From Catajapyx aquilonaris (lineage: Eukaryota): 40,424 nt of DNA. Each line of letters begins with the position of its first letter. The first letter of the stretch is position 1. The stretch spans positions 1 through 40,424 of the forward strand of contig JYFJ02003535.1 in assembly GCA_000934665.2 (NCBI GenBank), written 5' to 3'. The notes under the pieces are model-generated. The model did not search any database, was not told where the DNA came from, and was given only the letters and a program-made list of their open reading frames with translations. Made by a program: the position numbers and the translations under genes. Shown here in pieces: positions 4,096 through 27,827 of the stretch.

Positions 4096-4103
4096 TATCG
4101 ATA
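4096..4103. promoter_or_regulatory. DRE motif (TATCGATA) upstream of DDX19 copy 1
   Basis: Exact TATCGATA about 260 bp before the ATG at 4354; the same motif precedes the other two WGLLE exons. Confidence 0.55.
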
Positions 4104-4353: not shown

Positions 4354-7300
4354 ATGACGATGAGTGAGACGCGTGGGTGGGGACTACTGGAGGTAGGGTA
4401 ACGGCATGACTATATGGGGATGCATTCTTTTTTTCTTTTTTCTTCTTTTTTCCCATGGCGTAGGGGCCTAGTCCTTGCACTGCATGAGGGCATGGAATGC
4501 TCACTGGCGGTGACATTGGGGACATTCAAGGTCATCCAAATTGTAAATTGGGTTAGTGTTTTGGATCACCTTGTATAGGAAATAGGGGAGTGTACAGGGA
4601 GGAGTCAGCTCTGTTCCTAGTTGACTCGGCCTTTGAGCTCCTTACCTCCCTGGCAATGAGGCCTCACACTGATTTTAACATCGCAATGATAACGGTGTAT
4701 CAACAGTGCAAAAAGAACTGTCCCAGTCATCCTGACGTGTGGGCTGGCTGCTCGACACACACCATGTAAGTTACATGGTGTGTGTCGAGCGGGCAGCACA
4801 CACATCAAGATGACTGGGACAATTCTTTTTGAACTGATGATACATGGCCACCTTGGGGGTGACAAGAGCGAGCTGAATGTTGCAGAATTTCTATCAGGTA
4901 GAAACGACTGTCAGTGTAAGTGGATACCAACAGCAGATGGAATGGGTTTCCATACTTGGCTCAGTTATTAGACACCAAGGTCGTCCCAATAATGTGGGGG
5001 AAGGTGGTGGCAAATTCACACAGGGTGACCGAACAAGCATATCAACATCTCCCAGACCTTCCCCAACTGGGGATGGTGATCAGCTCCTGTCTTGCCAATG
5101 GTTGATTTTACCGGTTTCACCAAATCCCACTGTGTTCATCGGGGTTGTCTTGGTATTTCCCCCCCTCCGTAGTGCCTAACCCTGGACAAACCAGGACACC
5201 TACAGTTCAGGAGATGTGGTGTACTGTACACAATGAGATGTTACCACATGTTGTCTGCCATTGTTGTCCCATATCTGTAGCGTGTATCAATATGTAGTAC
5301 TTGAGAGGCTTAGAAGGCGACCAGCGCCAAGTAGTAAGTGGCAACCAGACAGTATTGCTGGTGTCCTTCGAACATCTCAACCTGGTTATTGCTCAGTGAA
5401 TGAACCCTTTTGACCAATTGATGACAACTCCATTTGAGAATCATCCTCAGGTATTGGTGAAGGGCAGCAGACTAAATAGAACAGTAGTATGCAGCCACTG
5501 GCAAGCATTTCAGGTGACCCAACATCAGGAGGGTCAAAGTAGACACCGTTCATGTTGGGGCTTTGGGTAGCTGGGAACCTGCTAATGATCAACTCCTGAG
5601 AAAATTATGCAGATGGGCTTACAATAAACTGTTTAAAAGCTATGCATAAGTGATGCCCTGAGATGTTATGTACTGTTCCATACATTGAGCCTATCACGCA
5701 CATATTATAGTCGGACAGTCACATAGCCTTAGTTTGTTGCTTGGGCTTCTTCCAGCTCAATCATGAAATGAATGAAAAAAAAAAAATGCAGGACATAACA
5801 GCAGAAATTTGTATCAGAGTGAAGCAGTTATTATGCTAATGATATTGTTCTACTACTTGTAGGGTCTGTTGGATATTACCAAAGATGGTGCTGGTAATGC
5901 CAGTCCAAACAACGAGGAGGATCCCAAAGGGGACCTGGAAACGCAGTATCTCCTGAGAAAGATCATCAGGAAGGGGTTGATTGAGAACAAGAATGACGTG
6001 GAGATTCAGAGACGAAATCCCAATTCACCTCTCTACTCTATAAAGACATTTGAGGCGCTCAATCTGTAAGTTGAAGTTAGAGGAAGAATATGGAAGAATT
6101 TTGTCACTGTTGAAATCACTTTTATAATTTGTGATTTCTGTTTATTTTGTGAAGGCCTGCAAACCTGCTGAAGGGTCTGTATGATATGGGATATGATTCA
6201 CCATCCAAGATTCAGGAAACTGCCCTGCCGACCTTGATGGCTTATCCGTAAGTCAACACGTGCTTTACCAATGTTAACTTAGCTCTCAAGACTTGAATTT
6301 GATTAGGTAGTAAAATGATTGGGCGTTAATTTGTAGATCATCTGGAGTCTGTTAATTGCTGGATGATGATGGTGAATTTGACAAGTAGTGGAGCTAAAAA
6401 TCCTAGTAAATTAATTGATAGATAGTGAAAGAGAAACCTGCATTTTAGTTTACTTTTGACAACTTTTTGCAGCCTACTAACAGGGAGTCATTACTGGATT
6501 AGTCCAGCAGAAAACTAAAATCTATGTGGGCCTTGTAAACCCAACTCATCCTGGATTAACCTCAGACTAGCTTTGTTGTGTGTCTTGAGCCCATGCCAAT
6601 GCTATTATTGCGACCAGCGTCAGGTCTTGTCATAAATTAATGTTTTTGTGGTGTACAGTTTGGTACAATATTCCATAATGGTTTGTGCTCCTTCAGGCCC
6701 CAAAACATGATTGCCCAGTCTCAGTCTGGCACAGGGAAGACTGCTGCTTTCGTTCTGGCAATGCTGAGTCGAGTGGATCCTGACAAGAAGTACCCTCAGG
6801 TAAGGAATGATTGGGAAAGACATGGCATATTGCGCTACCTCCCTTGTATGAAATATTTTTTGTTCCTTAACTTTCAGTCCCTTTGCTTGTCCCCAACCTA
6901 TGAACTTGCACTCCAAACAGCAGCTGTCACCAAGAAAATGGCCAAGTATTGCCGAGACTTACAGATTAAGTTGGCTGTTCGAGGGGAGAACAGTACGTTG
7001 TTTCTAATTTCTTAGAGGTCATCATCAGTACATACATTATTAGACCCTCTGCCTGAGCAGTAATTTCAAAGACCGTAAGAGCCAGTTGGCCTTTCTTCTC
7101 TTGACTTCTTCCCCATCAACTAACCAAACAAACAAAAAGGCCATCTACTTGATTGGTTGAGACATATTTTCCAGGTGATGTGACAGTTATTTGCTATGCT
7201 AGCACAGACAACAATTCGGTGACAAATCTTTACGCAAATTGCCAGCAACAAATACATACATGGTGTTCCAAGTATATGGGTACTTTTAGTTAGAGGAAAT

Positions 7301-10300
7301 GTTGCTTGAAACTAATTTTTTTGAAGCTCATTGGGCCCTGATCCAGGTCCCCTATTCTACAGGGTAGTCACGAATTTGTTTGCCAAAATGATATGGGTGG
7401 TATGGGGGTGAGTATGATAAACGCATGGCATGGGTCAGAAAGGCCGTTGATGCTACATCTAGGAGTGTCGACCTTTGACATCGACGATAACCATCCTGAC
7501 AAGTATGGAAACCCCTGTACATGCCTGCATTGCTGGTTGCCTGTTCGAGGCCCTTGCACTCCTACACCATTGCCTGACCCTGGCAACCAGCGATGCAGGG
7601 ATGCACGGGGTATCCATACTTGTCAGGATGCACTTCGTTGACGGCCTTTCAAGCCCATGCCATGCTTCGTCTTCCATGCCCACCTGCTACCACCCGTATA
7701 TCATTTTGGTAGGTATGAATTTGTGACCACCCTGTACAACAAGTGCTACATTCGACCACCTGATATATAGTAAAGAGATCTCTGGATCGGGGCATAACAA
7801 GCTACACAAAAATAACTACTTTGGATGATATTAGTAATAACTAATAACAACCCACGAACTTGTACAGTACCCTGCATTAATGGCCATGCACAGACATCGC
7901 CACCTGTCCAAGAACGAAATTAGGCGCCGGTGGACTGCGTCCAAAATACTTGGACAGCTCAAGATATCGCGGTTGATTCAAACGCTTGCTACAAAGATGG
8001 ATCACAGCGGATCACAGATGTATCTGTGGGATGAATATTATAAGGCCATTGCGATTCCCATCAATGTATTGAGGTTGTGAACCAGTTATTACACGTACCA
8101 CGTGAATGCCTGTTAATTCACCGCGATGTCTTGAGCAGCCTTGAGCGGACTCGTGAGAAGCCTTGAGCTGTCCCAAGCATTTTGGACGCAACCAACTTAA
8201 TCTACTTCCGCTCGTTCCCGCCAGATGGCGGTGTCTGTGCATGGCCATTAATGCAGGGTACTGTAACACCATATATAAGAATAATACTGTATGCCTTCGG
8301 ACCAATGCACCTATGACAAATGTGCCTGTAATGTGATGAACTTTTGTATGGTTAGCTGCATTGGCCCCAGCTCAGGTTGAGTCAAAATGGCAGCATCTGG
8401 AAAGCAACTGCCACATTAAATGTAGGGTAATATAATTATGTGCTGCTGATGACCATGATATCTATTCAGTTTCGAAATCCTTTCTAATGATTGATTTCTC
8501 TGATAAAGTGGCTGCAGGGGAAAATATTGAGGAGCAGGTTATTATTGGCACCCCTGGAAAAGTTCTGGATTGGTGTCTGAAGTACGGAGTCCTTGACTTG
8601 AAACGCCTTGAAGTGTTTGTTTTGGATGAAGCTGACATCATGATCAGTCAGCAGGGGCACCAGGACCAGAGCATGCGCATCCACAAGTAAGTTGACACGG
8701 CAGTATTATTGTGCCCCAATTTTGTCCTAACTGACTGTTAGTTAATTCACCAGTTTCTGTATGTACATCATAGAAAAATTAATATTCCTCTCAGAGTGAG
8801 GAAAGCCTAGCTTGTTAGTGATGTCAAAGGTGGAAAGATGTTAATTTTTCCATGATGTGTAAAGAACAGATTTTTAGATTCCAAAAACCCTTCGAAAAGG
8901 TAGGCATTTAGTTCCTGAAAACAACTAAAATAGGCTCATAAATAGGCAGTAACAATCAATCAGGTTTTAACTTCTTTTCATTCTATACAGTAGTATTACA
9001 GCCTACTCTTGGCAGCACAATAACACACTAGCAGTTGCTGGTTCTATATTTTCGGCGGTTAGTTGGTGATGCCTGTCTGACAACACATCATTATATGCAG
9101 AAAACTACATTTCGACCTCACACAAAGTAACTGGATTGTACGTGAAAAGTGATGAAAAGTTAATCCGACATACCTACAACTTCTTTGCCCATCACAGGTT
9201 GAAGTGGAAGCAAAGCATTGAACGGAAAACCCACAGAACTCTCACAAATCTTACAGAACGATGTCAAAAAGGTGGAGATATGCGCTAATAAGCCACTTAG
9301 GTTCCAATGCCCTGAATAAGCAATTTTAGGTTGTACTGTTTTAAAGCTACGACTTTTGAGGTCCTTGTGTTATGAAACATACGAGGGCTAGTCGGAAAAT
9401 AAGTTTCGCGATGCTTCAGTTTCGATGCCATGCGATGGACAGAGTAAAAACGAGCATGAGCAGATACATTGATCCTTCCTCTACTTTACAGTACAGGTAG
9501 GTGCCTTCTTGCAGCTTATACGCAGGTGCGGCAGCTGTTGGACGACCCATATGCCCACCCATATGCCTCCAGGAAAAGTCATGCCAGACAGCGAGTGTTG
9601 GTCACATGGACTAAGACAGAAGTGAGGGCAGATGTTCGCTACCAGTGTTCGACATTTGACATACGACATTCATCACTGGCTAGTGGAGTGTATGGTCTGG
9701 AGATGTTGTGTCTGAGCAAATGGTGCGGCAATATGGTGCCAGCAATTTTAGAATAAGGTCGCAAGTGTAAAGGACAACCAGAGACATGAACTACCGGCCA
9801 CAGCAATTACCGACAGTGTATGCAGTGTGTCCTAACTTGTGCCTTAGTCCATGTGACCAACACTCTGTCTGGCATGACATTTCATGGAGGAATGTGGGCG
9901 GGCACGCTCTGCTGGCCACTGGGTCTCGTCCAACGGCTGCCGCTCCGGCGCATTAGTTGCAAGTAGGCGCCTACCCAGCCTATAAAGTAGAGGAAGGAGC
10001 AACGTACCTGCCCTTGCTCCTCTTTACCCTGTCCATCGCATGGTGTCAAAACTGTAGCATCGCGAAACTTATTTTCCAACTAGCGTTCGTATATTTATTC
10101 TGGTTCCGGTGTTCTGCCTATACAGAATTAAAGAGTAGGCGAAAACCTAAAAATATGTTCTTTACTTATTGCATGGTGCATGAAGTCAGCTCCTTGAAAT
10201 GCTTGATCACGTTACCTCATGTGTGGTATCACTTATGAGGAGTTCCTTACCATCTTTCTGCAGGACCCTGCCTGACACATGCCAAAGGATGCTGTTCTCA

Positions 10301-12145
10301 GCTACGTATGATGAGGAGATAATGGAATTTGCCGATGCCATAATTAAGCAGACCCCCTTGATCCTCCGCCTGAAGCGAGAGGAGGAGTGCTTGACCAACA
10401 TCAAGCAGTTGTATGTGGCCTGCCCTACACCTGATGAGAAATACCGTGCTATAGCCAACATTTATGGGGTGGTAACTATTGGTCAGGCTCTGATCTTCTG
10501 CCGCACACGTAGAACAGCTGCGTGGTTGGCAGCCAAGATGAGTATTGATGGTCATGCTGTGGCGCTGCTGACCGGAGAGCTTACCACTGAGCAGAGGGCA
10601 GCTGTGATAGAACGCTATAGGGAAGGGTTGGAGAAAGTACTCATCACCACCAATGTCCTGTCTCGAGGTGTGTGTATTTTTGAGTTCTTCCTGGTTGGAA
10701 AGTGGGTAGCAATAAATGAGTTTAACATTTGTTTGCGATGCAGTACAAACTTCAATAATTGATTAAGTAATTGATAATTTTAATGCCTTATTTTTAATAG
10801 TACATATTGAGTGTGGTGCATTTGTGTCACATTAACCTATAGGTTTAATGTCATTTCAAAAATATAGTCATTTATTTTTGAAATGAAATTAAACCTTACT
10901 TTTAAATTTGTGGGATTATAGTATTTGTCATATGGTTTTAATTGACCTATTGGTAATCATTTGAAATGTAATTTTTTGAGAAAACCTTACTTCTTCATAT
11001 CTTAGTGTACAAAAAGTAGCTTTTTTTTTTTACCATTACTGCATGGTGATATTGATTTTTATTTGCGCAGGAATTGACGTTGAGCAGACCACCTTGGTGG
11101 TGAACTACGATCTGCCCGTTGATAAAATAGGAAGAGCCAGCTGTGAGACCTACTTACATCGCATAGGTCGCACCGGAAGGTTCGGAAAGGCGGGACTTGC
11201 CATCAACCTGGTGGAGGATGACCATTCCATAAATGTGCTCAGGCAGATCGAGAATCACTTTGGTTAGTTATAACTGATTTGTTTAAATTTGTTAAAATTT
11301 ATTTTACCCCATGATAGAGAACAATGCCCATATTGTGCAGACCACCATCAGTTTTCTGTGTTCAATTTGATCTTTAGTAGTCTCTGGTGCAAGGAATCAA
11401 GGACGTAGGGTAGGGATAAGGATTTTTGGGGAGGGGCCAAGGGTGCAACTGCAATGTCGGTACACTGATGGTCATGTGCAGTCCCCCAGGAGCTTAGGTT
11501 GCCTGACACCTCCAAGCCGCGGGTCAGAGGCCCTCCTGATGCAGGCGAAAGGGAAATCCCAGGCAGGGTTCGAACCCAGGACCTTCCGCTCAGTAAGCCG
11601 AGCTGGTCACCATGCCTCCCCGTAGTTATAACTTATTATTACAGGTTAAAAAAAGTGCAGTCAAGTTTATGTAAAAATTTGTGGAGTCTGGAGCAGGGGT
11701 TTTCCAAGTGGGCCATTTCAAAGACCTTCTAGGTCTAGTGGGGCTGTGAATGTATCAAAATTGCAATTTTTTATTGGAGTTGACTAGCAAATGGCAGTAT
11801 GCATATGGAATTAAGTGGGCTTGCAACCTTGGAGGCCATGCCATGAATAACTTAGTATGCTTCCTATAGGACTTAGGGATGGGAGTGCACCTGCGCAATG
11901 AGGAAAAAGTCAGCTGGACACTCTGTTTCCTGATGCTACCCTCGTCCATGTTTTCTGCAAGGCACTTCCTGAACTGAAAGTCTGGGAACTGCTACGTTAG
12001 TAGTAACTAGCAGTGCGACGAAAATTCCACCCATAGTACAGTATTGTTGCTACTGTTCTTCTTCTTTCTCTTTGCAGGCCGGAAAATTGTCAAACTGGAC
12101 AGTGACAATGTGGATGAACTGGAAAAGCTCTTCCAGGATTACTAA
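4354..12145 (+). CDS. DDX19: DDX19/Dbp5 DEAD-box RNA helicase, tandem copy 1 (about 464 aa; exons 4354-4392, 5863-6065, 6155-6247, 6697-6799, 6878-6992, 8509-8686, 10264-10667, 11071-11262, 12078-12145)
   Basis: Exons sum to 1395 nt in frame with GT-AG sites; Q motif [55 protein letters not shown]19-specific NPNSPLYS and GHQDQS. Exon 1 ([13 protein letters not shown]) inferred from phase and similarity to the other WGLLE exons; start could be 4360. Confidence 0.9.
4696..4844. repeat. Near-perfect 149-bp palindrome (MITE-like) in intron 1 of DDX19 copy 1
   Basis: Arms symmetric about 4770; perfect core gctcgacacacaccatgtaa-g-ttacatggtgtgtgtcgagc. Confidence 0.9.
7360..7734. mobile_element. 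Tc1/mariner-type MITE in intron 5 of DDX19 copy 1
   Basis: TA|cagggtagtcacgaattt ... aatttgtgaccaccctg|TA; imperfect inverted arms of about 90 bp; TA target duplication. Confidence 0.85.
7865..8263. mobile_element. Tc1/mariner(pogo)-type MITE in intron 5 of DDX19 copy 1
   Basis: TA|cagtaccctgcattaatggccatgcacagaca ... tgtctgtgcatggccattaatgcagggtactg|TA; perfect terminal inverted repeat of about 30 bp plus inner inverted segments. Confidence 0.9.
9382..10089. mobile_element. Mariner-like non-autonomous element with long inverted arms in intron 6 of DDX19 copy 1
   Basis: TA|cgagggctagtcggaaaataagtttcgcgatgct ... agcatcgcgaaacttattttccaactagcgttcg|TA; inverted similarity continues inward (about 9580-9620 vs 9840-9880). 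Confidence 0.85.
11382..11621 (-). mobile_element. tRNA-derived SINE, copy 2 (intron 8 of DDX19 copy 1)
   Basis: Collinear with 3504-3755 (ggtgcaaggaatcaa ... ggtcatgtgcagtcccccaggag ... ccctcctga ... tcgaacc); B box present, A-box region partly deleted; gtagt on both flanks. Confidence 0.8.
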
Positions 12146-13601
12146 TTGTTTTTCCATGTCTCTGGTTGAAGAGGACTTGTATACGGAGATGTTGTCACAA
12201 GGGATGTATATCATGTATTTAAGTTTTTTCAAGTTGCAAGCTGCAATTGCTATTGTAAAGGGCCTTATTAATAATACCTTGTTGCCAGATCTTTTCAAAG
12301 ATCGGCGTATTTAGATGATTGAGGCCAAAACGTCAGCAAGGTTGATCCTCTGATTCTCCAGACAGTACCACTGACACTGACAAGTGAGTGCTGAAGATTT
12401 TTTTAATTTTTTATTTTTCCTGCCCCAAAATGATGATAATGCTTAGAAGTTACTTATGATACATTGGAGACATTTTGCCCTCGACTTTTTGTTAGCGTAT
12501 AAACTCAGCTTGTAACTGACAAGTGTATATGTGTAAAGATAAGGTAGACCTACTGTTGAGGTCAGAAAGTCTCATATGTGGCAGGTGATTTAGCCCTTTT
12601 TTCAAGTCCCAGAAAGTAGTAGTGTCATAATGACATCAGTATATGCATTGCTGGCCTCTTTTTTTTTTTTTTTCAAATCTTAAGTGTTTTAAGATGATTG
12701 ATTGTGGAAATGGCAGCAAGTTGGGTGCCATGTTCTCCAGAGAGTCTCCCATGTGTGTACGATTTTCTAAAACTCTTTCAGTTTCAATAACACTTGTATG
12801 TTCTGTTTTGCCATATGTTTCACAACTATTCAAGATGCTTTCCTAATTGCGGATATTTTTCACATCATTGTAAGTCCCATTTTGATACGTTCTTTTTTGT
12901 TTGCGCTTTTGTACCATACTTGCAATATGTAGGTAGGTCACAATGCCATGATTTTTTGAAAACTCTTAATTTTAAACATGCTATTGAGCAACCTGTTGTA
13001 TTTTTGTGCAAACTCGACCTGTTGTGCACGTGACTTCCACAAGTACACTGGGGGTCAGGGAAGTGCAGGGGGAAGGTCGGGAATGTGACTCCTGCAAGTA
13101 ATCATTATGTATTTGTAGCTGTGTTTTGTAGTGTTCAAGTGTCTCGTCTTTGTTGACTGCCAAGTGATTAATGTGATTCATTTATACTAAACATTTGAAT
13201 AACTGGAAGAAATGTACCATGCAAGTGTATGTTTGAAATCCAAAACATACTTTCTGTGTCACATTTGTCATATTCTGTTACTAAAAAGCACTTAGTTGAG
13301 ACAAGGACAATAAAAGCTACGTTTTCTACCTTCATCAGCATTTTGATTCTAGTACTCCATGCAGAAGTATAGTGATCTACTCAACAGTCAATGTGCATTG
13401 TGCAGTGTTTTTTTTCCCTAGTGAGAGTGTGAAATGGAAATTGTGGCCCTGTATGTGCGTGTACGTAATGATTGACAAGTTTCAAAAACTGCATACACAT
13501 TACATCCTATTTTCTACTTTAAATCCGAAACTCACTGTGCTGGTAAAAGCATCAAGGTTTTTACAATTGTAACCATTGCAGTTAAGCGAAAAACCAATAT
13601 T

Positions 13602-13622
13602 TTATTATTATTATTATTATTA

Positions 13623-13689
<67 letters not shown>
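13602..13689. repeat. (TTA)n microsatellite
   Basis: Direct reading; one interruption; source of the poly-Ile pseudo-ORF. Confidence 0.95.
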
Positions 13690-13751
13690 GATGACATTGC
13701 ATGGGGGGGGGATATCGATTCGATGATTTTGGTTTTGTTGGCGATATTGCT

Positions 13752-13759
13752 TATCGATA
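13752..13759. promoter_or_regulatory. DRE motif upstream of the orphan WGLLE exon
   Basis: Exact TATCGATA 240 bp before the ATG at 13992, in a CpG-rich patch. Confidence 0.55.
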
Positions 13760-13991
13760 TGCAGCCACCGCCGCCGATTCGACGGATTGGATATTTTCGA
13801 GTAGCGGCTACGTTATTGCAGGGCCCAGTGGGAGCAGGTGGTGCCATCTGGAAAGCTAGAAGGTGCCAAGGTGGGCGCCATTGCTCGAGAAGGCTGAACA
13901 TCGTCGGTACAGCCTGCAGTGCACGCCGTTTTCCTTTGTCTCCAAACCTCCTTCGGGGACAACAAGACGTGTCCAGCGGTGCTGCTTCGTG

Positions 13992-14042
13992 ATGGCTGGA
14001 CTCCCTAAGATGCTGCCCTCACGTAGGTGGGGCTTGCTGGAG
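13992..14042 (+). CDS. Additional DDX19-type first coding exon ([17 protein letters not shown]): alternative exon 1 of copy 2 or relic of a lost copy
   Basis: 51 nt from ATG to GAG|GTAAGG; same length, phase and [10 protein letters not shown] ending as 18140-18190. Confidence 0.65.
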
Positions 14043-16517
14043 GTAAGGCCGTAAAAGCAGCATGCAGACCCTGCAGATAGCTAGGATCGGGCATGGGCTA
14101 CAACAAGTGGGTGTTACAGGGTGTCCCACTCGCCCCCAAAAAAGCGCCGAAATTTTATAAGCAACCTGTTAAAAAAATAATTATTATTAAGGTTTTATCA
14201 TGGCGGATTTTTTAAGCCTTGGGTAGTCTGGCCATGTCATGTGCATGCCAGGATTTGTCCAGTGCCAGGTTGCAGTGTCAGTAACACCATATTGTGCTCG
14301 CTGGTTTAAACTCACCAACAGACCAGTTGCTCGAACTACAGTACCTTGGTGTGTGGTTTTATATTTCACATAAACTGAGGGTGTGTGAAGGTCAAATGAA
14401 GGGAATTATAGCTGCAGTGTTGGGATATCCTATGCTATGTGTTGCACAGGCCTAGGTGCATGGGAGTCAGTTGTGCTACCATAGCCGCTGGGGGTTGCAT
14501 AAATATTCTGGTGCCAGTTATGTAGGTAAGATTGTGTACCAATGTGTGCAAATAAGTTAAACAACCAGCTAATTGTTCTATAGGCTGATAAAAATTTGCA
14601 GACAGGAAGCTATCCAGTATTGGGACTTAACTGCTTACCGTATTACTAGCACAAATGTTTAGGGTGTAACTCATTAATGGATGTCAAAATGAAGAGGCTG
14701 CAATCAAAACGTGTTTAATAATTCCATTCGGGTGCACTTTTGACTGATCAAGAAAAACGTAGGGCTGCAATGGAAGGGAAAGGGGTTGGACATTCCATTG
14801 AAAACATGCCATATTTGCCTAATTGTCTGACCCGGTCTGACCCTTAGCTAAGGCAGAGGGAATGATCATGTCAAAATAAATGATTAATTCACCTGCATTG
14901 ACTCTCATTGGAACTGTTTACATTGCAATGAAATGTTGAATGGGGCCATAAGGATACTATAATATGACCTGTACATGCTGATCACTTGTAAGTTCATCAT
15001 GTGAGTTTATTATTCTCTGGGTTTTTTGTGGGGAAATGATTCATAAGAAATTGCACTTGAGTAAAAGGGTGCAAGTAAAGCAATATAGAAATAGGAATCG
15101 AGTTACACACGTTGTGTGTGGTACTCGCCATTTCAAGCCAGATGATATGCAAGACTGTGTCAAAACATGTACTCATAGCCTATCAGACACTCATTCTTTG
15201 TGTACAATGCAGGTGCTGGTACTTACATAACATTCCTTGGTCATTGCAAGTGAGGCATGTCCTGCAGATAGTGGCACTCACAGAGTACTTAGATGATTGA
15301 CCATCCACAACAATGTTGGCTGAAAGTACATGCAGATTTTTTCAGGAGACAATACATGCTCCAAACATCAGACACTACAAGATGTTTTGCTTCTGTATTT
15401 TTGCACCACTTGAAATGGTTGCAAATCTACTTGCGTAAAGGGTTCTATGTCATACAGGTCTGCCTCCAGCCATTTCCGCGATTCTTGAACGCTGGATTGC
15501 AACTTGGAACTTGGAACCCTGCTGCAACAATTCAAGATTAAATTTTTTGATCACCTGGGATTTAGAGCCTAACTATTACCACCTCTCCATGGACAGGAAG
15601 AAATGGCTTATTGCAAAGCGAGAAATATAATGTGTTCCTGGGAACTATCACATGAGGTAGATGTTATAGTGATTTATAGAGGGATGAATGAGCAATAGTC
15701 AACATCTGGCCAGGTAAAGTTGTAGGCTGCGCACCATAACTATTGTCTGCTACAGGGAAGGTTGGTCCATAATAATCTAAGTAAATGGGTGAGGAAATTA
15801 AGTGCAATGTAATCCTGACTTAAGAAATGATATGACTAGTTCCAAGTAGTATTTTTTTTTACAGATGCAGAAGGGTTGGAATCATCATGCTGGATGGTGT
15901 TATCTATAAATGTTTGAATCAATATGGACAGTGGGGGTAGCCACTCAATAATAATAATCCCAAGAATTGTTCATTATGTTAAACAATAATTATTATCTTT
16001 GGACTTGACCTAGAGCTCACACGTACTGAGCCATAGGATGCCACTTTGGCTTCAGATAACTTAATGGAAGTTTTGAAATTGTGAGCTTCCAATTTTAATA
16101 ATATCCTAAGGATGAAGCTGGAATAGCAGCCTCAGATTTTGTTAGGGTTAGTGCTGCTTTTTTTTCCAAAATTTGGAAGAAGCAAACATAACCCTCAAGT
16201 ATTTAAATTCGGATGTCATTTTCACTTGACGTATTCCTGACTATCCTGAGTACTATTTAATGCAATATGACATGTTTCCACCTTTCCTAAAAACCATTAG
16301 CTTACATTTATCAGGATTACTTTTTAATGATGTGTTCATGAGAAAATTGGTTATGAGGGTTGCCTGCCTGCTTTGGACAAATAGGTAATGCACTGTAGGG
16401 TGCTTATACGAATGCAGTGATTATGTTCAAAAATCAAGAGAAGATTACTAGTTGCCATGTCATTTTTCTCCCTCAGTTGCAAACTCCCATATTGTGGATT
16501 CCAACACAGGAAATGTA

Positions 16518-16639: not shown

Positions 16640-17422
16640 TATGGTGTTTACCTGTCAGATACAATTCTATGATTTATGTGCTTTATATGGTAGTATGATG
16701 CTGGTGTAGGCTGAGCGAATGTGTTTCATTCTCTGTAATGGTATATTTGCCTGCTGTACACCATTTCCCACTATGTGTTCAGGAGTTGTACTGCCCATGT
16801 GCATTAAACTTATTTTGCGGCTGACAGCATGAAATCTGGAAGGAGTGTGTAAACTGTTACATGAATTGCACTTTGGTGATCTTGCTATCTTCAACTAATC
16901 TATGATGGCAGGGATTAACTTGCATCTCCTTCAATGCTGACTACCCTTAGAGGAAAATGTACTGTTTTGTGTATTCACGGCATACTGCGTTACTGCCTAA
17001 TCCCATAAGTGCACCGCTCATAGGACTTCTCCACCTAATAAATTCAACCAGATAACCTTAAGCATTTTACTAGCAAAGAAGCGATAAATGGGCATCATGG
17101 ATGATGATCATCTCCATTTGCGTTTTTTGTTCCAAGTGCCAGGAGGTGAGTGTGCAGCATGGTTTCACAAAGTAGCTCACATTTATGCAGCTGAAGGGTG
17201 CCCACCCACATGCCCTGTAAGCAACCTGAAGGGGAAGGACAGGAGAAAGGAAAAAAGACAAGAGGTTGTGCTGCGCGGTATTTGGTTCTTCTGCGACCAA
17301 CTAAAATTTGGCCTGTTCAGCAATACCAATTTGATGCTGGCAAAGTCTGCAACATTTCAGCCAGTATGTATGCCAGTATCTGGCTACAATTCAAACAATC
17401 AACTGCCCATTGTGCATCTCTG

Positions 17423-17546
17423 CCGTCCCAAGGTAAAACGCCCTAACTGCAAAACTATAGTAAGGGTGAAAAAAAGGGCTTGTACACGACTTTATATTCA
17501 CCCTTACTAGAGTTTTGCAGTTAGGGTGTTTTTACCCTTGGGACGG
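17423..17546. repeat. Inverted repeat/hairpin (MITE-like)
   Basis: ccgtcccaaggtaaaacgccctaactgcaaaactatagtaagggtgaa ... ttcacccttactagagttttgcagttagggtgtttttacccttgggacgg. Confidence 0.85.
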
Positions 17547-17951
17547 AAAATCTGGCAACCTCCTTGCTCTTACTGATTTTGGTTTCATGTCACTTTGTGC
17601 CTTGTCATAATTTATCGCCATTCTGCACATAACCAGTACTGCATTATTCCCTAACTATACCCCGTCAATTAAATCTAATTATTAGTATTAATTGGCAGGC
17701 GCTCTCGACGGCATTATTTTTTCCAGCGGGAAATAGCCATTCATTAATAGCCGTTATCGCGATAACCATTATCAATTAATCCGGCCACGTGGCCTTGACA
17801 AATTATAACTGCTGCTGAAGTGGGCACGAATATTTATCTCGTGGTGTAATAATTAGCACTTTGCGTAATTCTAAAGATGTTGAGAACTACCTGTAGTGTA
17901 CTCGAGTGTACTGCACATAACATGGAAAACGACAGTCCTGAAATTCGAAAA

Positions 17952-17959
17952 TATCGATA
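17952..17959. promoter_or_regulatory. DRE motif upstream of DDX19 copy 2
   Basis: Exact TATCGATA about 190 bp before the ATG at 18140; related tatcgattcgata at 17976. Confidence 0.55.
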
Positions 17960-18139
17960 TATCTACACCGAGGCGTATCGATTCGATACTGTTAAAAGTA
18001 GCTGCTACAAATCGGCCTTCCTTTCCTGTGATGGCTTCCCGGCTTCCCTTCCTTCCTTCCTTTTGACAATTGGGCTGTATGAGATCCAGAATCTGTTGTG
18101 ATCCTCGAGTGATCCTCAGCATTTTGAGCAGTGGGTTTG

Positions 18140-21100
18140 ATGGAGGGTCCCGCCCCACATCTTCCGTCCCGTCGATGGGGACTTTTGGAGGTATGGCTTA
18201 TTCTGGGTGGGCAGATATAGAGACTGGTTGACTCAATTTTGTTCTTCTGTGCTCTGGTTGGAGAAAACATTGCATTCTTCAAACCAGCATGGCTGGAATC
18301 CCCTTGCTAAGTTCTGTCAGTCAACACCTACTGTATTCAGTACTATAAATCCCAAATATTATTACGGTGGACACTCGTATACAGGATAATATAAAATGCT
18401 ATTCCAATTGCTACGGCTAATGCTGCCTACTATTCAAATGGTTGCTTTAAACCACATATATTTAGTGGTCATCCAAGGTATGGGCTGTTCATATTAGGTT
18501 GAATGGGCCTGCAAGGGGTTGTGGCCTGCAAAAATCTATTGATGTTCAATGCCAACAGACATTAGAAATTTCAATCTTTGGATAGGTGAATCAGTTTTTG
18601 GCTAATACAGTGACACCTTTATTCATCACTTCCATCAGGGAGCTGATTTAAAAAAAAAAAAAAAAAAAAACAACTAAGACTGCAGGAATACTACAAATGT
18701 ATGGGCCTATGCAAAATGGGAAATGAGTTACCACTTCTTGAATATACAGGGGCTGGACAAAATAACGGAGCCCCTTGCAAAAAGCGGATGAGTTTTCTCC
18801 TCCATTGTTCTCGAAAACTGGAAAGGTTACAGAGATGGGCTTTGACTTATTTTGAAGCTCTGTCGATGTACATTTACAGACATGAAGATATATGGCACAA
18901 AAATCACAAGAGGAGGGGGAGAAACAAAAGACTAACGACGACTCCTCCCAGACCCCGTATGAACAGAGTGTCCCACACTTTTCATTTGAAAATGAAAATA
19001 GTTGCAGATATGAACTTCAGTGCATTTTGGAGGTCTATCGATGACTTCGTTTGGTATAGAGATGAACCAAAATTACAGGCAGGCTGCTTTTTGCAGGGGG
19101 GGCCTGTATTTACTACACAAAAAGAGTTCTAAAAGGCTTGTTTAGGCTTCATTGCAGGTTGACGCTTTGGCTGGTGTTGGTGACGTGCCAGTAGGCCATG
19201 CCAAAGTGCCAGTGGGCCATGCTGAAGTGCCAGTGGGCCATGCTGAAGCACCCTCAGCACAGGCAGAGCCAGATGATAATGACAAAGACCTAGATGTGGC
19301 TGAGAAGTCTCTCCTACAGAAGATTCTAAGGAAGGGATTAGTTGAGAACAAAAATGACTTGGAGATCCAACGGCGAAACCCAAACTCGCCTCTGCATTCT
19401 GTGAAGTCATTTGAGGCACTCAACCTGTAAGTTCAGATGATTCCTATTTGGATTCCCCTTATTCTACAATAATTTTCATTATTGCCGATTTATTGCAATT
19501 TTTTTAAAGGCCTCCCAACCTACTGAAGGGAGTTTTCAAGATGGGATTTGACTTTCCATCCAAAATTCAAGAAACTGCGCTGCCCACCTTGATGGCTCAT
19601 CCGTAAGTTCATATAGTGTACTACTGCTGGTTAATGTTTGAGAGTCAATAATTTTAACTTTGGTCGCATTATTAATACAGGTTGAGAATCCTTTTTCTGA
19701 AATTCCAACTGTATAAAGGAATGCTGTGTAGTAATGGTGTGAACTGGAATTATTTTGTACAAATTAGTAATAATATTTTAATGGTTCATGTTTCCGTAGC
19801 CCTGTTGACATGATTGCCCAGTCTCAGTCTGGAACTGGGAAGACTGCCGCATTTGTGCTGGCTATGCTGAGCCGGGTAGATGGTACAAAGAATTACCCAC
19901 AGGTAAGAAGTACTGTAGTTTATTGTAAGCAGACATCATGGTGCCAACCTTGTCTTAAACTCTCGTTATGCCCCAACTTCCAGGCTCTGTGTCTTGCACC
20001 AACATACGAGTTGGCTGTCCAAATTGGAGATGTCACCACCAGGATGGGTCGGTTTTGTCCGGATATTAAGATCAAATTGGCTGTTCGTGGAGAGGATGGT
20101 ATGTAGTCATTTCCCTTATAAGTAAATGTTGATTAATCTTGTGGAACCTGGTTATCACAATAGTGTAGTCTAAAGGCCTTTTTTGCACCATGCAATTAAT
20201 GTGTGCGCAACTTTTTTGCGGGCAAGAAGCACAGTATGCAAACTGAAAGCATTGCCTCTACTTCATCTGGAATTTTGTGGCTACTTCTGTTCTAAACTAG
20301 TTTCAAATGACTCGAATAATTTGAGTGTACAATATTACACCACATTGCTGGCACAATTATTGTGCCAGCCATGTGGTGTAATATTGTACACTATGTCTGG
20401 ACAAGAAGTTTCATAAAGCTATCTGTTTAATGCTTGCTATTTTTTTTGTTGATAAAGTGGGAAGAACGGAGAAGATTGAAGAGCAGATAGTGATTGGTAC
20501 TCCTGGGAAAGTTCTCGATTGGTCAACCAAGTTTAAGATTCTTGATATGAGCCAGCTGGCAGTGTTCGTCCTGGATGAAGCTGATGTCATGATTGGAATG
20601 CAGGGGCATCAGGATCAAAGCATCCGGATCCACAAGTAAGTTTTCATACTCAACACAACTACAGTCATGAAGTCGACAGAACAGTAAAGAAACATGTAAT
20701 TATTTCATCTGGCATCCCAGATGTTGATCCCTAGTAATGCAAGTGTGAATACTCTGCAACTTTCCATCCAGTAACTACAACTTTTTAAGCCTTTAATACT
20801 TGCCATGAGGAAATATAAAAATGTGCAAAAAATATTCTTTTAAAATATTAGACAAAATCACATGAGCAAAGGATCAAGGCAATATGCCTTTTAGCCCAGA
20901 GTCGAGGAAATTTTTAGCAATTTTTCACCGCATGTGTTGTGAGAAAATTAAAGCTCATTTGAATGCAGATTTTTAGATGGCATATTTGAATTTTCGTTGG
21001 GGGTTTTCAACATCTCATGCATCTGTCACACAAAAACCTGCTGTTGGATGTTTAATCTGCATGATACTGATCTTCCTTTTCCTTCAGATTGGTTCCCGAG

Positions 21101-21900
21101 ACATGCCAGGTGATGCTGTTCTCGGCAACCTATGATCAGGATGTTATGGACTTTGCGGAGATCATTATCCCCGAACACCCGATTATTCTCCGTCTAAAGA
21201 GAGAGGAAGAGTCGCTCTCAAACATCAAGCAGTTGTATGTCGACTGCGGGTCACCAGAGAGCAAATATCGTGCCATTGCAAACATATATGGGGTGGCCAC
21301 TATTGGCCAGGCCATGATCTTCTGCCACACCCGTAAAGCTGCTGCCTGGCTTGCCGCCAAACTTGCTACGGATGGCCATGCCGTGGGCATACTCAGCGGA
21401 GATCTAACCATTCAACAGAGGGTGGCCGTTCTAGAGCGCTTCCGGGACGGAATGGAAAAGGTGCTGATCACCACTAACGTGCTCTCCCGAGGTGTGTTTT
21501 CATAAGATGATATTGTTGTGAAAATGGGTAGTAATGAGTATAATGCTGTGTTCTGGACAGGCATTGACGTGGAGCAGGTCACCCTGGTGGTCAATTATGA
21601 CATGCCCGTGAATGTGAGTGGACGAGCCGATTGCGACACTTATCTGCATCGCATTGGACGGACAGGGCGTTTTGGCAAGGCAGGACTTGCCATTAACCTT
21701 GTGGATGGTAGCAAAACCATGGACATCGTAAGACAGATCGAAACCCACTTTGGTTAGTTGTTGTGCATAATGTGACACAGTTTTGCCATTTGAATGCATC
21801 TTAATATTCTAAATCCTTTTTAATACCTGCAGCCCGTAAGATCGTCAAACTAGATAGCGACAACCTAGACGAGCTGGAGCAACTCTTCCACGAGAACTAA
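18140..21900 (+). CDS. DDX19: DDX19/Dbp5 DEAD-box RNA helicase, tandem copy 2 (about 494 aa; exons 18140-18190, 19146-19426, 19510-19602, 19800-19902, 19984-20098, 20458-20635, 21088-21491, 21561-21752, 21833-21900)
   Basis: 1485 nt in frame, GT-AG introns at the same positions as the other copies; [48 protein letters not shown] intact; TAA at 21898-21900. Exon 1 [17 protein letters not shown] is inferred. Confidence 0.9.
18747..19106. mobile_element. Degenerate Tc1/mariner-type MITE in intron 1 of DDX19 copy 2
   Basis: TA|caggggctggacaaaataacggagccccttgcaaaaagc ... gctttttgcagggggggcctg|TA; right terminal repeat partly deleted. Confidence 0.5.
19185..19247 (+). repeat. In-frame 21-bp x3 coding tandem repeat ([21 protein letters not shown])
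   Basis: gtgccagtaggccatgccaaa gtgccagtgggccatgctgaa gtgccagtgggccatgctgaa in exon 2 of copy 2. Confidence 0.95.
20324..20392. repeat. 69-bp palindrome (34-bp arms, one mismatch) in intron 5 of DDX19 copy 2
   Basis: agtgtacaatattacaccacattgctggcacaat-t-attgtgccagccatgtggtgtaatattgtacact. Confidence 0.95.
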
Positions 21901-22995: not shown

Positions 22996-24745
22996 TTACT
23001 TATTGGAAAGAATCTGCGACTTTAAAACACTTTTCACTTCATTAATAACACGAGGATGTGAAAAGGCTTGGATGATCATGCGACAGAAATTGTTCTTATC
23101 ACAGTCAAGTTCTGCAGGTACTTCTTTGTAATTACTTGTACTTGGTAAATGCAACTTTTCTGGAATTGCACGTGTGTGATATTTTTCCCAGATTGTTTTA
23201 TATGGCACTGAGGCAAGGGGTAAAACATTCTTGTGAGTTCTGGCCACATCTTCCCATGACGTGGCGCCGCATTCCCTTTTCTGCCGTTTGGACTCAGGTT
23301 CTCCTCTGTCGTTCGGGGCATCCTGGAGTGTGTTCAGACAGGTCTTGACATATCCTTCAAGGACAGACGCTGGAATGTCTGGCAGGTCATTCTGAATTAT
23401 AAAGGGTACAGCCGTAACTACAAACCACCCATGAAACAACAAGCAGCGATTTAACTGAAGCACTCCCAGCGCCAGCCTTACCTCGGTGGGATTGAGCATG
23501 CTCTGAATGTCTCCTGGAATGACCCTGCTGAGGGAGCCAATTAACCACTTCACCAGAGCTTCACTCACACGAGCATCTTTGTCCTCGTCAAGCGGGACCC
23601 AGGTGTTGACGCTAATTGAGACTTCCAGGTGCTCCACGAAATGCCACCACTTGGGAGGAACGTACAGGACTTCCCCTGGCTCCAGATCCACCAGGACGCA
23701 CCTGCTGTTCATCAGGCCTGAACGTTACAATTAGTTGTCATACCTGCATGAAACACTTTGTAACATATACCTGCATCGCTTGGAAGGTGACATGTTGAAA
23801 ATCCTAAAGAACTATACACGCTTGATTCTTCATAGGGGATGCGGGTTGGACGCAACTGCTCAGATTCTTCTGGTGGAAAAAGCAACCATCGCTTCCTGGA
23901 ATACGAGATCTGTTAGGTTTATGACCAATCCCACAAATTTTTTCCCTACGTCTTGTAACATCCTCGGTGTAAAGTTCACCAACCTGCCAAGAAGTTGAGC
24001 CACAAGATTGCACCCATATTGATCGTAGTGACACGGAGTGTTGGCCCCTTTGCTTCCAATCCACATTGTTGAATTGCTGCCATCCAGCTCCGGAAAACCC
24101 AACGGACTCCAATCAACACTCTGAAAAGTTAAGAACTGTAGCGGATTTCTCAATGGTTAAGTAATCAAAAAGCTCTTACTTTCAGAAGACTGTCCTTCTC
24201 TTCAAACACCTTGTGCATGTACTTGTAATCAAAGTACGCCCAATTATCATCAGCGGACATGCCTGCAAACCTACTGGCTTTGTTCATGACAGCACCACCA
24301 GCCTGCCACGCCACGAAATCTGAGAATGTCAGATGTTCCTCGCTGCAACATCTCTCCCACTCAGGCGACTGAAAGTAATGAAACTTGAAGCTTTCGCCGA
24401 ATAATAACACATAATTGAGTGCAACCAAACGAGGATCGCAACTGTGTTTCTACGTATGGTAATCCAGTTTTGTTCTACAATCAGCAACTGCTGTGTGACA
24501 TAAACGGATCATGTCCTAGTTTTTAAAATGCATGTCCGTTGTAGTTATTATCATACCTTCCGACCCTGCATTCTTCCAACACGAAAGCACAATTTCTGGT
24601 CCTCAAATATTCTTGCCCAATCGTCCAATGCATAAGAAGCCAGAGCCCAGTCCTCGATAAGTCCACGGAAAACGGCTGGTTCACTATTACGCAGGACACC
24701 TTCACGCAGCAGCTGTGACAAAGGTCTGCCTGATTCTGCCATCAT
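22996..24745 (-). CDS. HSPBAP1: HSPB1-associated protein 1-like JmjC/cupin protein (about 423 aa; exons 24745-24557, 24368-24180, 24120-23984, 23895-23771, 23717-23482, 23391-22996)
   Basis: 1272 nt in frame with GT-AG sites; WAYFDYKY, STMWIGSKGANTPCHYDQYGCNLVAQ, GRKRWLLFPP, PTRIPYEESSVYS, PGEVLYVPPKWWHFVE and ARVSEAL match HSPBAP1; HxD...H metal triad intact; AATAAA on the minus strand at 22947-22952. Confidence 0.92.
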
Positions 24746-25269
24746 GTTCCGCTGTAAATTAATGATTTAAAACTTAAATTAATTAATAGTCAACCTGGTC
24801 AAACCATATTAATCCAATACACTACCAGTAATCCAGTTAGTATGTGCAGAACAAGTTCGTCCTATCTACAACCATTTCCCAGTGTACAATGCAATCAACT
24901 TATTCCTAATGGTGAGGGCAATTAATGTATAGCTCATTACACAATTGTAAATAAAAATTAGCATCAATTTTAAGCGATTTTAAGAAACAACCACATTTCC
25001 GCCATTCGCCGGATACAACTTGGCAACCCTGTGCGACTACCAACCGTATTTAAGTTTAATAGCATCTGTCATTATTTAAAAAAAATTAAATCCGGCTAAT
25101 TAATTGCAACGAGCACATTAGACAAAACCTCACTTTTAAAAACATTGATTAAAACCAGAGAGCCGGTCAGCACAGGTAGCAGGCAGCGGCGTTGCATGCC
25201 GTTGCGAAAAAGTCGGCATCGTTTTGTGCAAGTAAAGTACGCCGAGTTATTAAAAGTGCTTCTCTAAGT
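24746..25269. promoter_or_regulatory. Probable bidirectional promoter/5'UTR region shared by HSPBAP1 and DDX19 copy 3
   Basis: Divergent start codons (24745 and 25270) separated by only 524 bp. Confidence 0.6.
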
Positions 25270-27827
25270 ATGTCTGCATCTGTGGAGGACTGGGGTGCAT
25301 CGGCGGACGCGCAGGAGAAGAAGCTCACCGACCAGGTATAACAATGCAACAGCCACACTTAACAAAGAAAGTGTACGGTACTCCTCATAAGGTTCAAGTA
25401 CAGACCAATATTATTATTATTATTATTATTATTATTTGTAACAATTTTCAGGTTGGAAGTTTGGACCTGGACGGTGGGGCTGATGCTGCTGCGTCCGGTG
25501 GAGTCGATGAGAACGAGCATATTGATGTGGCGGAGCGATCGCTTCTCCAGAAGATCATCAGGAAAGGATTGGTCGAGAACAAGAATGACCTGGAGATCCA
25601 GAGGAAAAATCCAAACTCACCGCTGTATTCCGTCAAAACATTTGAAGCGCTCAATCTGTAAGTTGGAAGTTTAGACCAGTTGGTTTCAGTCACATTATTT
25701 TATTTAAATAAAATAAAATAAATTCTGCCATTAGGACACAGGGTTTAAAATAAAATAAAATAAGATAAATAATATACTCAATAAATAAATAAAATAAATA
25801 TAATGACTGAACAGATAAATAATGTAAATTAACATATAGCATGACTGGGTCCTTGTAGGGCCTTGGAGCATCTCGAGACTGGGTAAAGTTAGAGTTAATA
25901 AATAAATAAATAAATAAAATGAATATATTTTGTGCAGGCATGCAGACTTGCTCAAGGGTGTCAGTCTCATCATTTCTTTATTTTTTATTTTTAATCCTAC
26001 CATGCATGGTTTTAAATAAAATAAAATAAGTAAATAAATAAAAAAATAATAATGACTGAATAAATAAAATAAACAAATACAGTGTCTGAATAAATTTTAA
26101 AAATTAAAAAATAAAGTGTGTGAATAAATAAAATTAAGAAATAAAGTGTCTGAATAAATAAAATAAATAAACAAATAAAATAGCTGAAATAAATTAAATT
26201 AATGTATTTTTCCAGGCCTGCTGACTTGCTCAAGGGTGTCTATGGCATGGGATTCAATGCACCTTCCAAGATTCAGGAGACGGCTCTTCCTACCTTGATT
26301 GCAGATCCGTAAGGCATTCTTTGAGCACTTCTGGTTATTTAATATGAAGAGTAATATATTATAATTAACTGTTTCAGCCCACAGAATATGATTGCACAGT
26401 CTCAGTCTGGAACTGGAAAGACTGCTGCTTTTGTATTGGCGATGCTGAGCCGTGTGGATGGTACAAAGAAATACCCACAGGTAAGCAGGAAGATTCTTGC
26501 ATCCGGAATATGCTTATGATTTGCAATTTTCAGGCCCTGTGCTTGTCCCCAACATATGAACTGGCTGTCCAAACTTCAGAAGTTACTGTCAAGATGGCTC
26601 AGTTTTGTCCGGATATACGGATCAGATTAGCTGTTAGAGGACAGGAAGGTATGTAGCGTACTTGTTCCATACCATGTTACAGTTGAATAATGCGTGTCAA
26701 TTTTTTTTTTTAAATATTTCAAGTGGGTATTGGTGAAAAGATTGAGGAGCAAATTGTGATTGGTACTCCTGGGAAAGTGCTGGACTGGTCTTTGAAGTTT
26801 AAATCCCTGGACCTGAAGCGACTCAGTGTATTTGTTTTGGATGAAGCCGATGTCATGATTGCAACACAGGGACACCAGGATCAAAGCATCCGTATCCACA
26901 GGTCAGTGAACGTGGCTCCCATGTAAGAGTAACGTAAGGATGGCAGTTAATACTCCTCTATTCCCACCACAGGATGATTCCCAAGACATGCCAGATGATG
27001 CTCTTCTCGGCAACATATGATCAGGAAGTGATGGATTTTGCAGAGGCCATAATATCGAACCCATTGGTCCTCCGTCTAAAGCGAGAGGAAGAGTCGCTCT
27101 CCAACATCAAGCAGCTCTATGTGTATTGCCGTACACCAGAGAGCAAGTACAGAGCGATAGGTAACATTTATGGAGTAGCCACCATTGGACAGGCCATGAT
27201 ATTCTGCCACACACGAAAAACGGTAACCTGGCTTGCCTCCAAGCTTGCTGAAGACTCCCATGCAGTAGCCGTGCTCAGTGGAGAGCTGAGCATTGAGCAG
27301 AGGGTGGCTGTGCTGGAGCGCTTCAGGGAAGGAAAGGAGAAGGTGCTCATAACCACCAACGTCCTCTCCAGAGGTATAACCATTTGAAACATTCATAAAC
27401 GAGTTACATGCTGTTTTGATTCTGTCATGTGCCATTACAAACTATAAAGCAGCCTACTTTACGTATTTTGTCTTTTTTGTGGACAGGAATTGATGTGGAG
27501 CAGGTAACGCTGGTTGTAAATTTCGACCTACCAGTGGATCAGAGTGGCAGAGCAGACTGTGAGACGTACCTGCATCGCATAGGACGAACTGGAAGGTTCG
27601 GAAAGGCAGGGTTAGCCATAAACCTTGTTGATGGGAGCAAATCAATGAATATCATGAAGCAGATTGAGGACCACTTCGGTTAGTTATTGCTTTTATTTTG
27701 GGACGTCTGTAACAATGGCGTCATGTGCTAAATTAATCCTTCCTTCTCTTTCTCCACAGGTCGGAAAATTGTCAAGCTCGATACTGATAATATTGATGAA
27801 CTGGAAAAACTCTTTCAAGATTACTGA
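25270..27827 (+). CDS. DDX19: DDX19/Dbp5 DEAD-box RNA helicase, tandem copy 3, ancestral-like (473 aa; exons 25270-25335, 25452-25657, 26216-26308, 26378-26480, 26534-26648, 26724-26901, 26973-27373, 27487-27678, 27760-27827)
   Basis: 1422 nt in frame; N-terminus [18 protein letters not shown] resembles the usual animal DDX19 start; [57 protein letters not shown] at 27825-27827. Confidence 0.95.
25705..26200. repeat. (AAAT)n-rich low-complexity, internally duplicated intron segment
   Basis: Degenerate aaat/aaaat arrays; blocks at about 25742 and 26008 start similarly and both end in an exon-3-like acceptor. Confidence 0.85.

Follow-up and report, generated by a model that had tools for sequence, protein, structure and literature searches.

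Why would one locus carry three genes for Dbp5/DDX19, an essential and usually low-copy enzyme that acts at the last step of mRNA export? The question is raised by a 40,424-nt stretch of DNA from Catajapyx aquilonaris (contig JYFJ02003535.1; analysed over its full length and called the window from here on), in which the stop-to-stop open reading frames (ORFs) of the plus strand between 4 and 28 kb include three sets of DEAD-box helicase exons, here named c1, c2 and c3 in 5´ to 3´ order. The window is eukaryotic in character: its genes are spliced, GC content varies between 37 and 46% from one 2-kb window to another, and several microsatellites are present. The explanation that we favor, with a probability of roughly 70%, is that the locus consists of three functional Dbp5/DDX19 genes produced by two old local duplications, that c1 and c2 are truncated in an N-terminal adaptor motif, the SLIP1-binding motif (SBM), and have evolved faster than c3 while staying under constraint, and that the set has been kept through sub- or neofunctionalisation.

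The gene models were built around P0003, a transcript-derived protein of 481 aa that is the nearest relative found in the databases. A tblastn search of the window with P0003 (threshold E <= 1e-3) returned three complete and collinear exon series, with best segment E-values of 4e-63 for c1, 3e-86 for c2 and 1e-136 for c3, and no further match anywhere in the 40,424 nt at this threshold. Splice-aware models were then derived by selecting, among in-frame GT/AG junctions, those giving the best alignment to P0003, with first exons added afterwards (Table 1). The resulting coding models contain no internal stop codon or frameshift, all 24 introns have GT-AG borders, and the intron phases are 0,2,2,0,1,2,1,1 in each gene. 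The positions and phases of introns 2-8 are common to the three copies, as are the sizes of exons 3-9 (93/103/115/178/404/192/68 nt), the exception being exon 7 of c3, which at 401 nt is one codon shorter. For intron 1, the acceptor is homologous in the three copies but the donor position is not, with exon 1 ending 4 residues past a conserved Trp in c1 and c2 and 14 residues past it in c3. A sequence-only reading of this DNA had proposed three intact 9-exon genes without stops or frameshifts and with identical intron positions and phases. The first proposal is upheld by the tblastn search and the splice-aware models, with the outer limits of 4354-27827 being exact. The second holds for the phases of all introns and for the positions of introns 2-8, but not for the position of intron 1, where c1 and c2 differ from c3.

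Table 1. Genes and coding features modelled in the window (positions counted from its first nucleotide).
Feature	Position	Strand	Description
c1	4354-12145	+	DDX19/Dbp5 (Dbp80-like) paralogue, 9 exons, 464 aa
c1 exons	4354-4392, 5863-6065, 6155-6247, 6697-6799, 6878-6992, 8509-8686, 10264-10667, 11071-11262, 12078-12145	+	Splice-aware model; exon 1 predicted
c2	13992-21900	+	DDX19/Dbp5 paralogue, 9 exons, 490 aa; intron 1 of 5.1 kb
c2 exons	13992-14042, 19158-19426, 19510-19602, 19800-19902, 19984-20098, 20458-20635, 21088-21491, 21561-21752, 21833-21900	+	Splice-aware model; exon 1 predicted
c2 linker repeat	19181-19248	+	In-frame 21-nt coding repeat, 3.2 copies, V-P-V-G-H-A-K/E, 87% matches (Tandem Repeats Finder)
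c3	25270-27827	+	DDX19/Dbp5 conservative copy, 9 exons, 473 aa, compact at 2.6 kb
c3 exons	25270-25335, 25452-25657, 26216-26308, 26378-26480, 26534-26648, 26724-26901, 26973-27373, 27487-27678, 27760-27827	+	Splice-aware model
HSPBAP1-like JmjC/Cupin_8 gene	about 22996-24745	-	Pfam Cupin_8 (8e-9) and JmjC_2; tblastn with P0160-P0163 covers 24404-23443
Dpy19-family gene, C-terminal exons, upstream of c1	1018-1916	+	Pfam Dpy19 (3e-22 and 2e-9), profile positions 494-651 of 653

The non-coding parts of the three genes have features of their own. The introns of c3 range from 53 to 558 nt; intron 1 contains a (TAT)9 tract (25409-25436), and much of intron 2 is occupied by an AT-rich minisatellite (26013-26203). 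Two inverted-repeat pairs are found in c1, one in intron 5 (7863-7963 / 8265-8162, 80% over 105 nt) and the other in intron 6 (9375-9630 / 10096-9828, 79% over 271 nt). These pairs may be foldback or miniature inverted-repeat transposable element (MITE)-like insertions, which would explain part of the extra length of c1. A dispersed repeat of ~220 nt, present upstream of c1 (3504-3723) and in c1 intron 8 (11382-11602) with 81% identity, looks like a short interspersed element, though neither the tRNA nor the Rfam scan matched it. A (TAT)31 microsatellite (13598-13689) precedes the predicted start of c2 by about 300 nt. The first AATAAA occurs 1164, 859 and 381 nt past the stop codons of c1, c2 and c3, respectively; these are consensus matches only.

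Three similar genes next to one another could in principle reflect an assembly artefact, in the form of haplotigs or of one gene duplicated by mis-joining. The copies are only 68-75% identical in amino acid sequence (68.5-74.6%) and 70-73% identical in coding nucleotides, and synonymous divergence between them is saturated (Nei-Gojobori dS of 1.57-1.76). BLASTN comparisons between the gene regions aligned only exons, or pairs of exons across short introns, with a best exon identity of 83% over 121 nt. Third-position identity did not exceed 0.72 in any 40-codon window, and by this measure we found no recent gene-conversion tract between the copies. Tracts of > 97% identity that include introns, of the type known for DDX19A/B, are likewise absent among c1, c2 and c3, whose introns do not align. 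The saturated dS, the confinement of similarity to exons and the low third-position identity together indicate that the copies are not assembly duplicates or haplotigs, as the earlier reading had concluded. With a coding nucleotide difference of 27-30%, saturated synonymous sites and unalignable introns, the copies are far beyond allelic divergence, leaving an artefact with next to no chance of being the explanation. For annotation, this means that c1, c2 and c3 should stay separate and not be merged or collapsed.

Membership in the DDX19/Dbp5 family was examined with domain, structure and protein searches. When exons 6 and 7 were scanned singly, each copy matched Pfam DEAD (PF00270, 29-33 bits with a cut-off of 26) and Helicase_C (PF00271, 46-56 bits with a cut-off of 23.5). 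Among PDB chains, exon 7 matched DDX19B best (166, 166 and 175 bits for c1, c2 and c3). The second-best named family was DDX25, with structure 2rb4 scoring 112-119 bits over the part covered by the chain, and lower scores were obtained for fungal Dbp5 (95-113 bits), eIF4A-III (75-85 bits) and eIF4A-I (67-75 bits). The named full-length proteins among the matches listed for exon 7 of c1 and c3 were all Dbp80, DDX19 or an unnamed "RNA helicase". Judged by these scores, and by their position within the arthropod Dbp80 set in the trees described below, the three copies are nearer to DDX19/Dbp5 than to other DEAD-box subfamilies.

The catalytic core is kept in all three copies. Pattern searches and alignment located motifs I, Ia, Ib, II (DEAD), III (SAT), V and VI in each, and the Q motif is kept in c2 and c3 and present in c1 with an F to Y replacement. 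For motif IV, the aligned copies have the corresponding IFC.TR stretch. The earlier statement that all helicase motifs are intact is thus confirmed for Q, I, Ia, Ib, II, III, V and VI, with the F to Y change in the c1 Q motif to be noted. In all copies the Q motif is also closely preceded by a strongly conserved segment, a candidate for the N-terminal auto-inhibitory helix (human residues 54-67), whose exon is lacking in the camel DDX19B row. Across 131 other rows, 205 columns are >= 95% conserved; deviations from them number 14 in c1, 12 in c2, 9 in c3 and 6 in P0003 and are mostly conservative. The camel "DDX19B" record itself (P0001, 685 aa) is a mis-predicted model: an N-terminal exon is missing and the helicase core occurs in duplicate, with two DEAD and two motif VI sites, probably reflecting a merge of the DDX19A/B tandem pair.

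Proteins of this subfamily have ATPase activity stimulated by RNA and Gle1 and dock on Nup214/Nup159 at the nuclear pore. Human DDX19 contacts Gle1 through several elements, which according to Lin et al. (2018, PMC5998080) include an acidic C-terminal helix (D470, L471, D472, E475), K385, a trigger loop (328-335) and an anchor loop (390-403). Human numbering was anchored on the camel DDX19B row, in which D470, L471, D472 and E475 are in register, and on the full-length PDB chain 3fmp_B. K385, G329, T332, D472 and E475 are identical in c1, c2 and c3, and the trigger loop, anchor loop, motif VI loop and acidic C-terminal helix are conserved in the three copies. Hence, the Gle1-binding surface residues of human DDX19 are conserved with two exceptions: V402T in c1, the only difference between the copies in the anchor loop, and position 470, which is N in c1, c2, c3 and P0003 as well as in 22 of 129 other rows. 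Given these conserved residues, all three copies most likely encode active Gle1-regulated RNA-dependent ATPases.

Relatives of the copies were collected by full-length protein searches with exon 7 of c3 and of c1, the latter search covering proteins of 236-2000 aa. Among the matches listed, P0003 is the nearest protein to both (83% for c3 and 74% for c1), followed by insect Dbp80 at 65-75% and by Daphnia, horseshoe crab, spider and centipede proteins at 65-69%. Over 470 columns c3 and P0003 are 81% identical, and the best 120 of 679 matches included no protein closer to c1 than P0003. The ESM Atlas label of the nearest cluster is "Arthropoda". Searches of metagenome contigs with the three exon-7 peptides matched 135 stretches, 26 of which encode relatives, the best being 68% identical to c1; no orthologue of c1 or c2 and no genomic cluster were found among them.

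Two trees were inferred, one with FastTree from 136 rows (the three copies and 133 of 159 DDX19-like matches, the 26 outside 440-545 aa being dropped) and one with IQ-TREE from 39 rows chosen to span the clades; neither includes a DDX25 sequence. In both, c1, c2, c3 and P0003 form one clade (support of 100 with FastTree and 100/100 with IQ-TREE), which belongs to a pancrustacean polytomy together with a Daphnia group, the winged insects and a group of 20 unnamed proteins of environmental or transcript origin, and is well apart from the DDX19B of camel and the DDX19A of amphioxus. This placement of the copies and P0003 implies that the expansion was independent of the vertebrate duplications that gave DDX19A/B and DDX25, and the earlier proposal of an independent invertebrate expansion agrees with both protein trees, given the 100/100 clade with the arthropod-like P0003 within the pancrustacean set and its distance from deuterostome DDX19. 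Within the clade, FastTree made c1 sister to c2 with support of 90, and IQ-TREE made c3 sister to P0003 (86/86). An approximately unbiased (AU) test did not reject a single clade of c1, c2 and c3 (delta lnL 3.19, p 0.10). With the c3-P0003 pairing at 86/86 and an AU p of 0.10, duplications before and after the split from the P0003 species are both compatible with the data.

The history of the copies has been one of constraint. Pairwise dN/dS is 0.10-0.13 among c1, c2 and c3, and a single-ratio maximum-likelihood (ML) codon model (GY+F3X4) gave an omega of 0.114 with branch lengths of 1.05, 0.79 and 0.58 for c1, c2 and c3. These values are not near 1 and clearly indicate purifying selection, as suggested in the sequence-only reading. 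As a neutral control, the c3 coding sequence was subjected to random substitution in 2000 simulated copies per level; the open frame was kept in 0/2000 at 14% change per site, in 10/2000 at 10% and in 140/2000 at 5%. The low omega and the simulations together indicate that the three genes were constrained for most of their history.

Rates under this constraint have been unequal. In Tajima-type counts, c1 and c2 exceeded c3 in unique replacements with all five outgroups (for example, 57 vs 19 and 49 vs 19; p 1e-5 to 0.013), and no difference was seen between c3 and P0003 (p >= 0.18). The end branches of the IQ-TREE tree measure 0.93 for c1, 0.68 for c2 and 0.21 for c3. Thus c1 and c2 have 2-3 times more unique changes, with c1 being the fastest copy and c3 the conservative one. 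Such acceleration could mean that c1, c2 or both are recently silenced relics that have yet to acquire disabling mutations, and the long, repeat-invaded introns, the first exons known only by prediction and the F to Y change in the c1 Q motif would fit a relic. However, frames open over 464 and 490 codons, GT-AG borders at all 16 introns of c1 and c2, an omega of about 0.11 and changes at only 12-14 of the 205 highly conserved columns, mostly conservative, are difficult to reconcile with silencing, and neutral drift of even 5% per site keeps the frame open in just 7% of simulations. We therefore consider relics very unlikely.

The N-terminal region is where the copies differ most clearly in their predicted make-up. 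The SBM, residues 6-14 of DDX19, is described in a recent preprint (bioRxiv 10.64898/2026.07.31.742013) as a helix specific to metazoans, through which DDX19 docks with the MIF4G domains of SLIP1/MIF4GD, CTIF and PAIP1. A strict SBM pattern, W-x4-[DE]-x-[QE]-[DE], is fitted by c3, by P0003 and by 74 of the 136 rows. For c2, exon 2 has no Met and an upstream exon 1 is therefore required; the candidate is 5.1 kb upstream. The first exons assigned to c1 and c2 have in common an ATG, the residues W-G-L-L-E and a GT donor, with a 27-nt match at 81% (E 0.009). After W-G-L-L-E the predicted transcripts splice into the linker without the acidic half of the SBM, leaving the pattern unmet, and no alternative SBM-bearing first exon was found in 2000-5862 for c1 or 12146-19157 for c2. 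In its predicted form, the short exon 1 ending in W-G-L-L-E before GT is a shared derived character of c1 and c2 that supports their common origin together with the FastTree support of 90. The linker also varies in that the 21-nt coding repeat (Table 1) is found only in c2 among the three copies.

How these differences are read depends on why three genes were kept. If all three do the same job, they could be redundant duplicates retained for dosage or buffering in the manner of human DDX19A/B. The catalytic motifs and Gle1 contacts, kept alike in the three copies apart from the c1 F to Y change and V402T, would suit this idea, and the human DDX19A/DDX19B pair is reported among buffering paralogues (PMC7558751). 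However, dosage duplicates usually stay similar, and in the mammalian pair gene conversion keeps the two genes homogeneous (PMC2720389); here the proteins are 25-32% different, conversion tracts are absent, the rates are unequal and the N-termini differ. Dosage is thus improbable as the reason, though clearly less so than silencing. Faster evolution under continued constraint agrees better with sub- or neofunctionalisation than with dosage alone.

One form that specialisation could take, suggested by the earlier reading and compatible with the data, is by tissue, with one or both of the fast copies mainly gonadal, in the manner of DDX25/GRTH, the gonad-expressed DDX19 paralogue, and c3 ubiquitous. 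Rate asymmetry commonly marks paralogues with narrowed expression, and the divergence of the N-terminal regulatory region with the enzymatic core kept points the same way. So does, weakly, the lack of any full-length c1- or c2-like transcript of a relative among the 236-2000-aa matches listed, which would fit low or restricted expression; that search used c1 exon 7. On the other side, the copies are not DDX25 orthologues, being in the arthropod clade. We regard germline or tissue specialisation as a tentative proposal, unlikely on present evidence and yet somewhat better placed than dosage.

Under the reading that we favor, a pancrustacean lineage, either non-insect or early-branching, would have acquired three Gle1-activated DEAD-box ATPase genes through two local duplications of old date. 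The ancestral function is probably carried by c3, which is compact, head-to-head with an HSPBAP1-like gene, slow and equipped with a full SBM. The other two copies would then go back to a single duplicate in which the acidic half of the SBM was lost and which was itself duplicated again, after which c1 and c2 evolved 2-3 times faster under continued purifying selection. Because they keep the catalytic motifs and the Gle1 surface, c1 and c2 are most likely still stimulated by Gle1, and the truncated motif suggests that their link to the MIF4G partners SLIP1/MIF4GD, CTIF and PAIP1 has probably been lost. A bolder and rather doubtful extension is that c1 and c2 represent an unrecognised "SBM-less" class, which would keep Gle1-dependent messenger ribonucleoprotein (mRNP) remodelling and lose the MIF4G adaptors for histone-mRNA, pioneer-round and poly(A)-dependent translation. 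If that were true, there might be separate export-remodelling channels for classes of mRNA or for tissues, such as the germline, and the locus would be a natural separation-of-function experiment on two roles of DDX19.

Several observations weigh against the account of three functional genes with two truncated, specialised copies. All of c1, c2 and c3 are known here from genomic sequence alone. The first exons of c1 and c2 are sequence-based predictions with a mutual match of 27 nt (E 0.009), and the truncation of the SBM could be an annotation error. The strict pattern is moreover absent in 62 of the 136 rows, some of them N-terminally incomplete and some with variant motifs, so that its absence is no proof of lost binding. 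IQ-TREE, the careful tree, leaves the relationship between c1 and c2 unresolved. Finally, the omega value averages over long branches on which dS is saturated, and it would hide a recent loss of constraint.

Even so, diverged paralogues of Dbp5/DDX19 that have been retained offer a natural test of where the protein tolerates change. In this case, the N-terminal adaptor motif and the linker vary between the copies against a fixed enzymatic core and Gle1 surface. If the first exons are confirmed, one organism would have one SBM-bearing and two SBM-poor DDX19 proteins. Otherwise, the locus would be one more lineage-specific duplication of a housekeeping gene, which would be unsurprising.

The surroundings of the three genes also bear on how the locus is described. 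A minus-strand HSPBAP1-like gene separates c2 from c3; its 3´ end faces that of c2 (tail-to-tail), and its 5´ end faces that of c3 (head-to-head). The three neighbouring copies are on the same strand, as expected from the earlier description of one tandem cluster, but the cluster is interrupted by this gene. Its start Met was taken from the ORF at 24551-24766, and the exon model is approximate. The P0160-P0163 set used for tblastn includes a protein named HSPB1-associated protein 1-like, and a protein search with an HSPBAP1 exon gave four weak matches, among them one from a bivalve and one from a nematode, with 48-49% identity across 24-36% of the query. The start codons of this gene and of c3 are about 525 bp apart (24745-25270), a spacing that suggests a shared bidirectional promoter.

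Upstream of c1, the window contains the C-terminal exons of a Dpy19-family gene (Table 1). Six other long ORFs in introns and flanks matched no Pfam family. Between 28 and 40 kb no gene was recognised among the ORFs of >= 60 aa, two of which were tested without a Pfam match, and Rfam and tRNA scans of the window found no non-coding RNA. A 72-bp tandem repeat is present at 40-304 (3.7 copies, 97% matches), and direct repeats with 71-85% identity are found near the 3´ end of the window (37927-38254 / 39570-39943 and 38731-38832 / 40230-40328). Downstream of the cluster, at about 29.9-30.1 kb, there is at least one N (an X in every reading frame), which may be a small assembly gap.

How does this locus compare with known members of the family? 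As far as is known, Drosophila Dbp80 and yeast Dbp5 are single-copy. The genes in the window are like Drosophila Dbp80, yeast Dbp5 and human DDX19B in their domain set, helicase motifs, C-terminal acidic helix and trigger and anchor loops, and unlike them in being three, two of which have no acidic half of the metazoan SBM in the predicted exon 1. They resemble vertebrate DDX25/GRTH as retained, diverged DDX19 paralogues with an intact helicase core. DDX25 is, to our knowledge, restricted to vertebrates, and the copies differ from it in having an independent origin, as they cluster with the arthropod-like P0003 at 100/100. Orthology of c1-c3 to vertebrate DDX25 was considered and rejected, since their clade falls within the pancrustacean grouping in trees that have no DDX25 row.

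A search of the published literature found nothing on multi-copy Dbp5/DDX19 in arthropods, with most subscription journals outside the search and annotation papers rarely mentioning such expansions; the papers listed on DDX19A/DDX19B paralogues dealt with mammals only. The closest analogue is the mammalian DDX19A/DDX19B pair, a precedent on record for a DDX19 gene duplicated in tandem. As described in PMC2720389, the mammalian pair (16q22.1 in human) is 13 kb apart in direct orientation, > 173 My old and kept alike by gene conversion, with > 97% identity over stretches that include introns. The locus described here is similar in being a local, direct-orientation Dbp5/DDX19 duplication with copies long retained intact. 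In contrast to DDX19A/B, it has three copies with 68-75% protein identity, unalignable introns, no conversion tracts, unequal rates and an HSPBAP1-like gene between c2 and c3. Collectively, these comparisons identify c1-c3 as a real and fairly ordinary lineage-specific gene duplication, which copy number, deep divergence without conversion and N-terminal divergence set apart from DDX19A/B.

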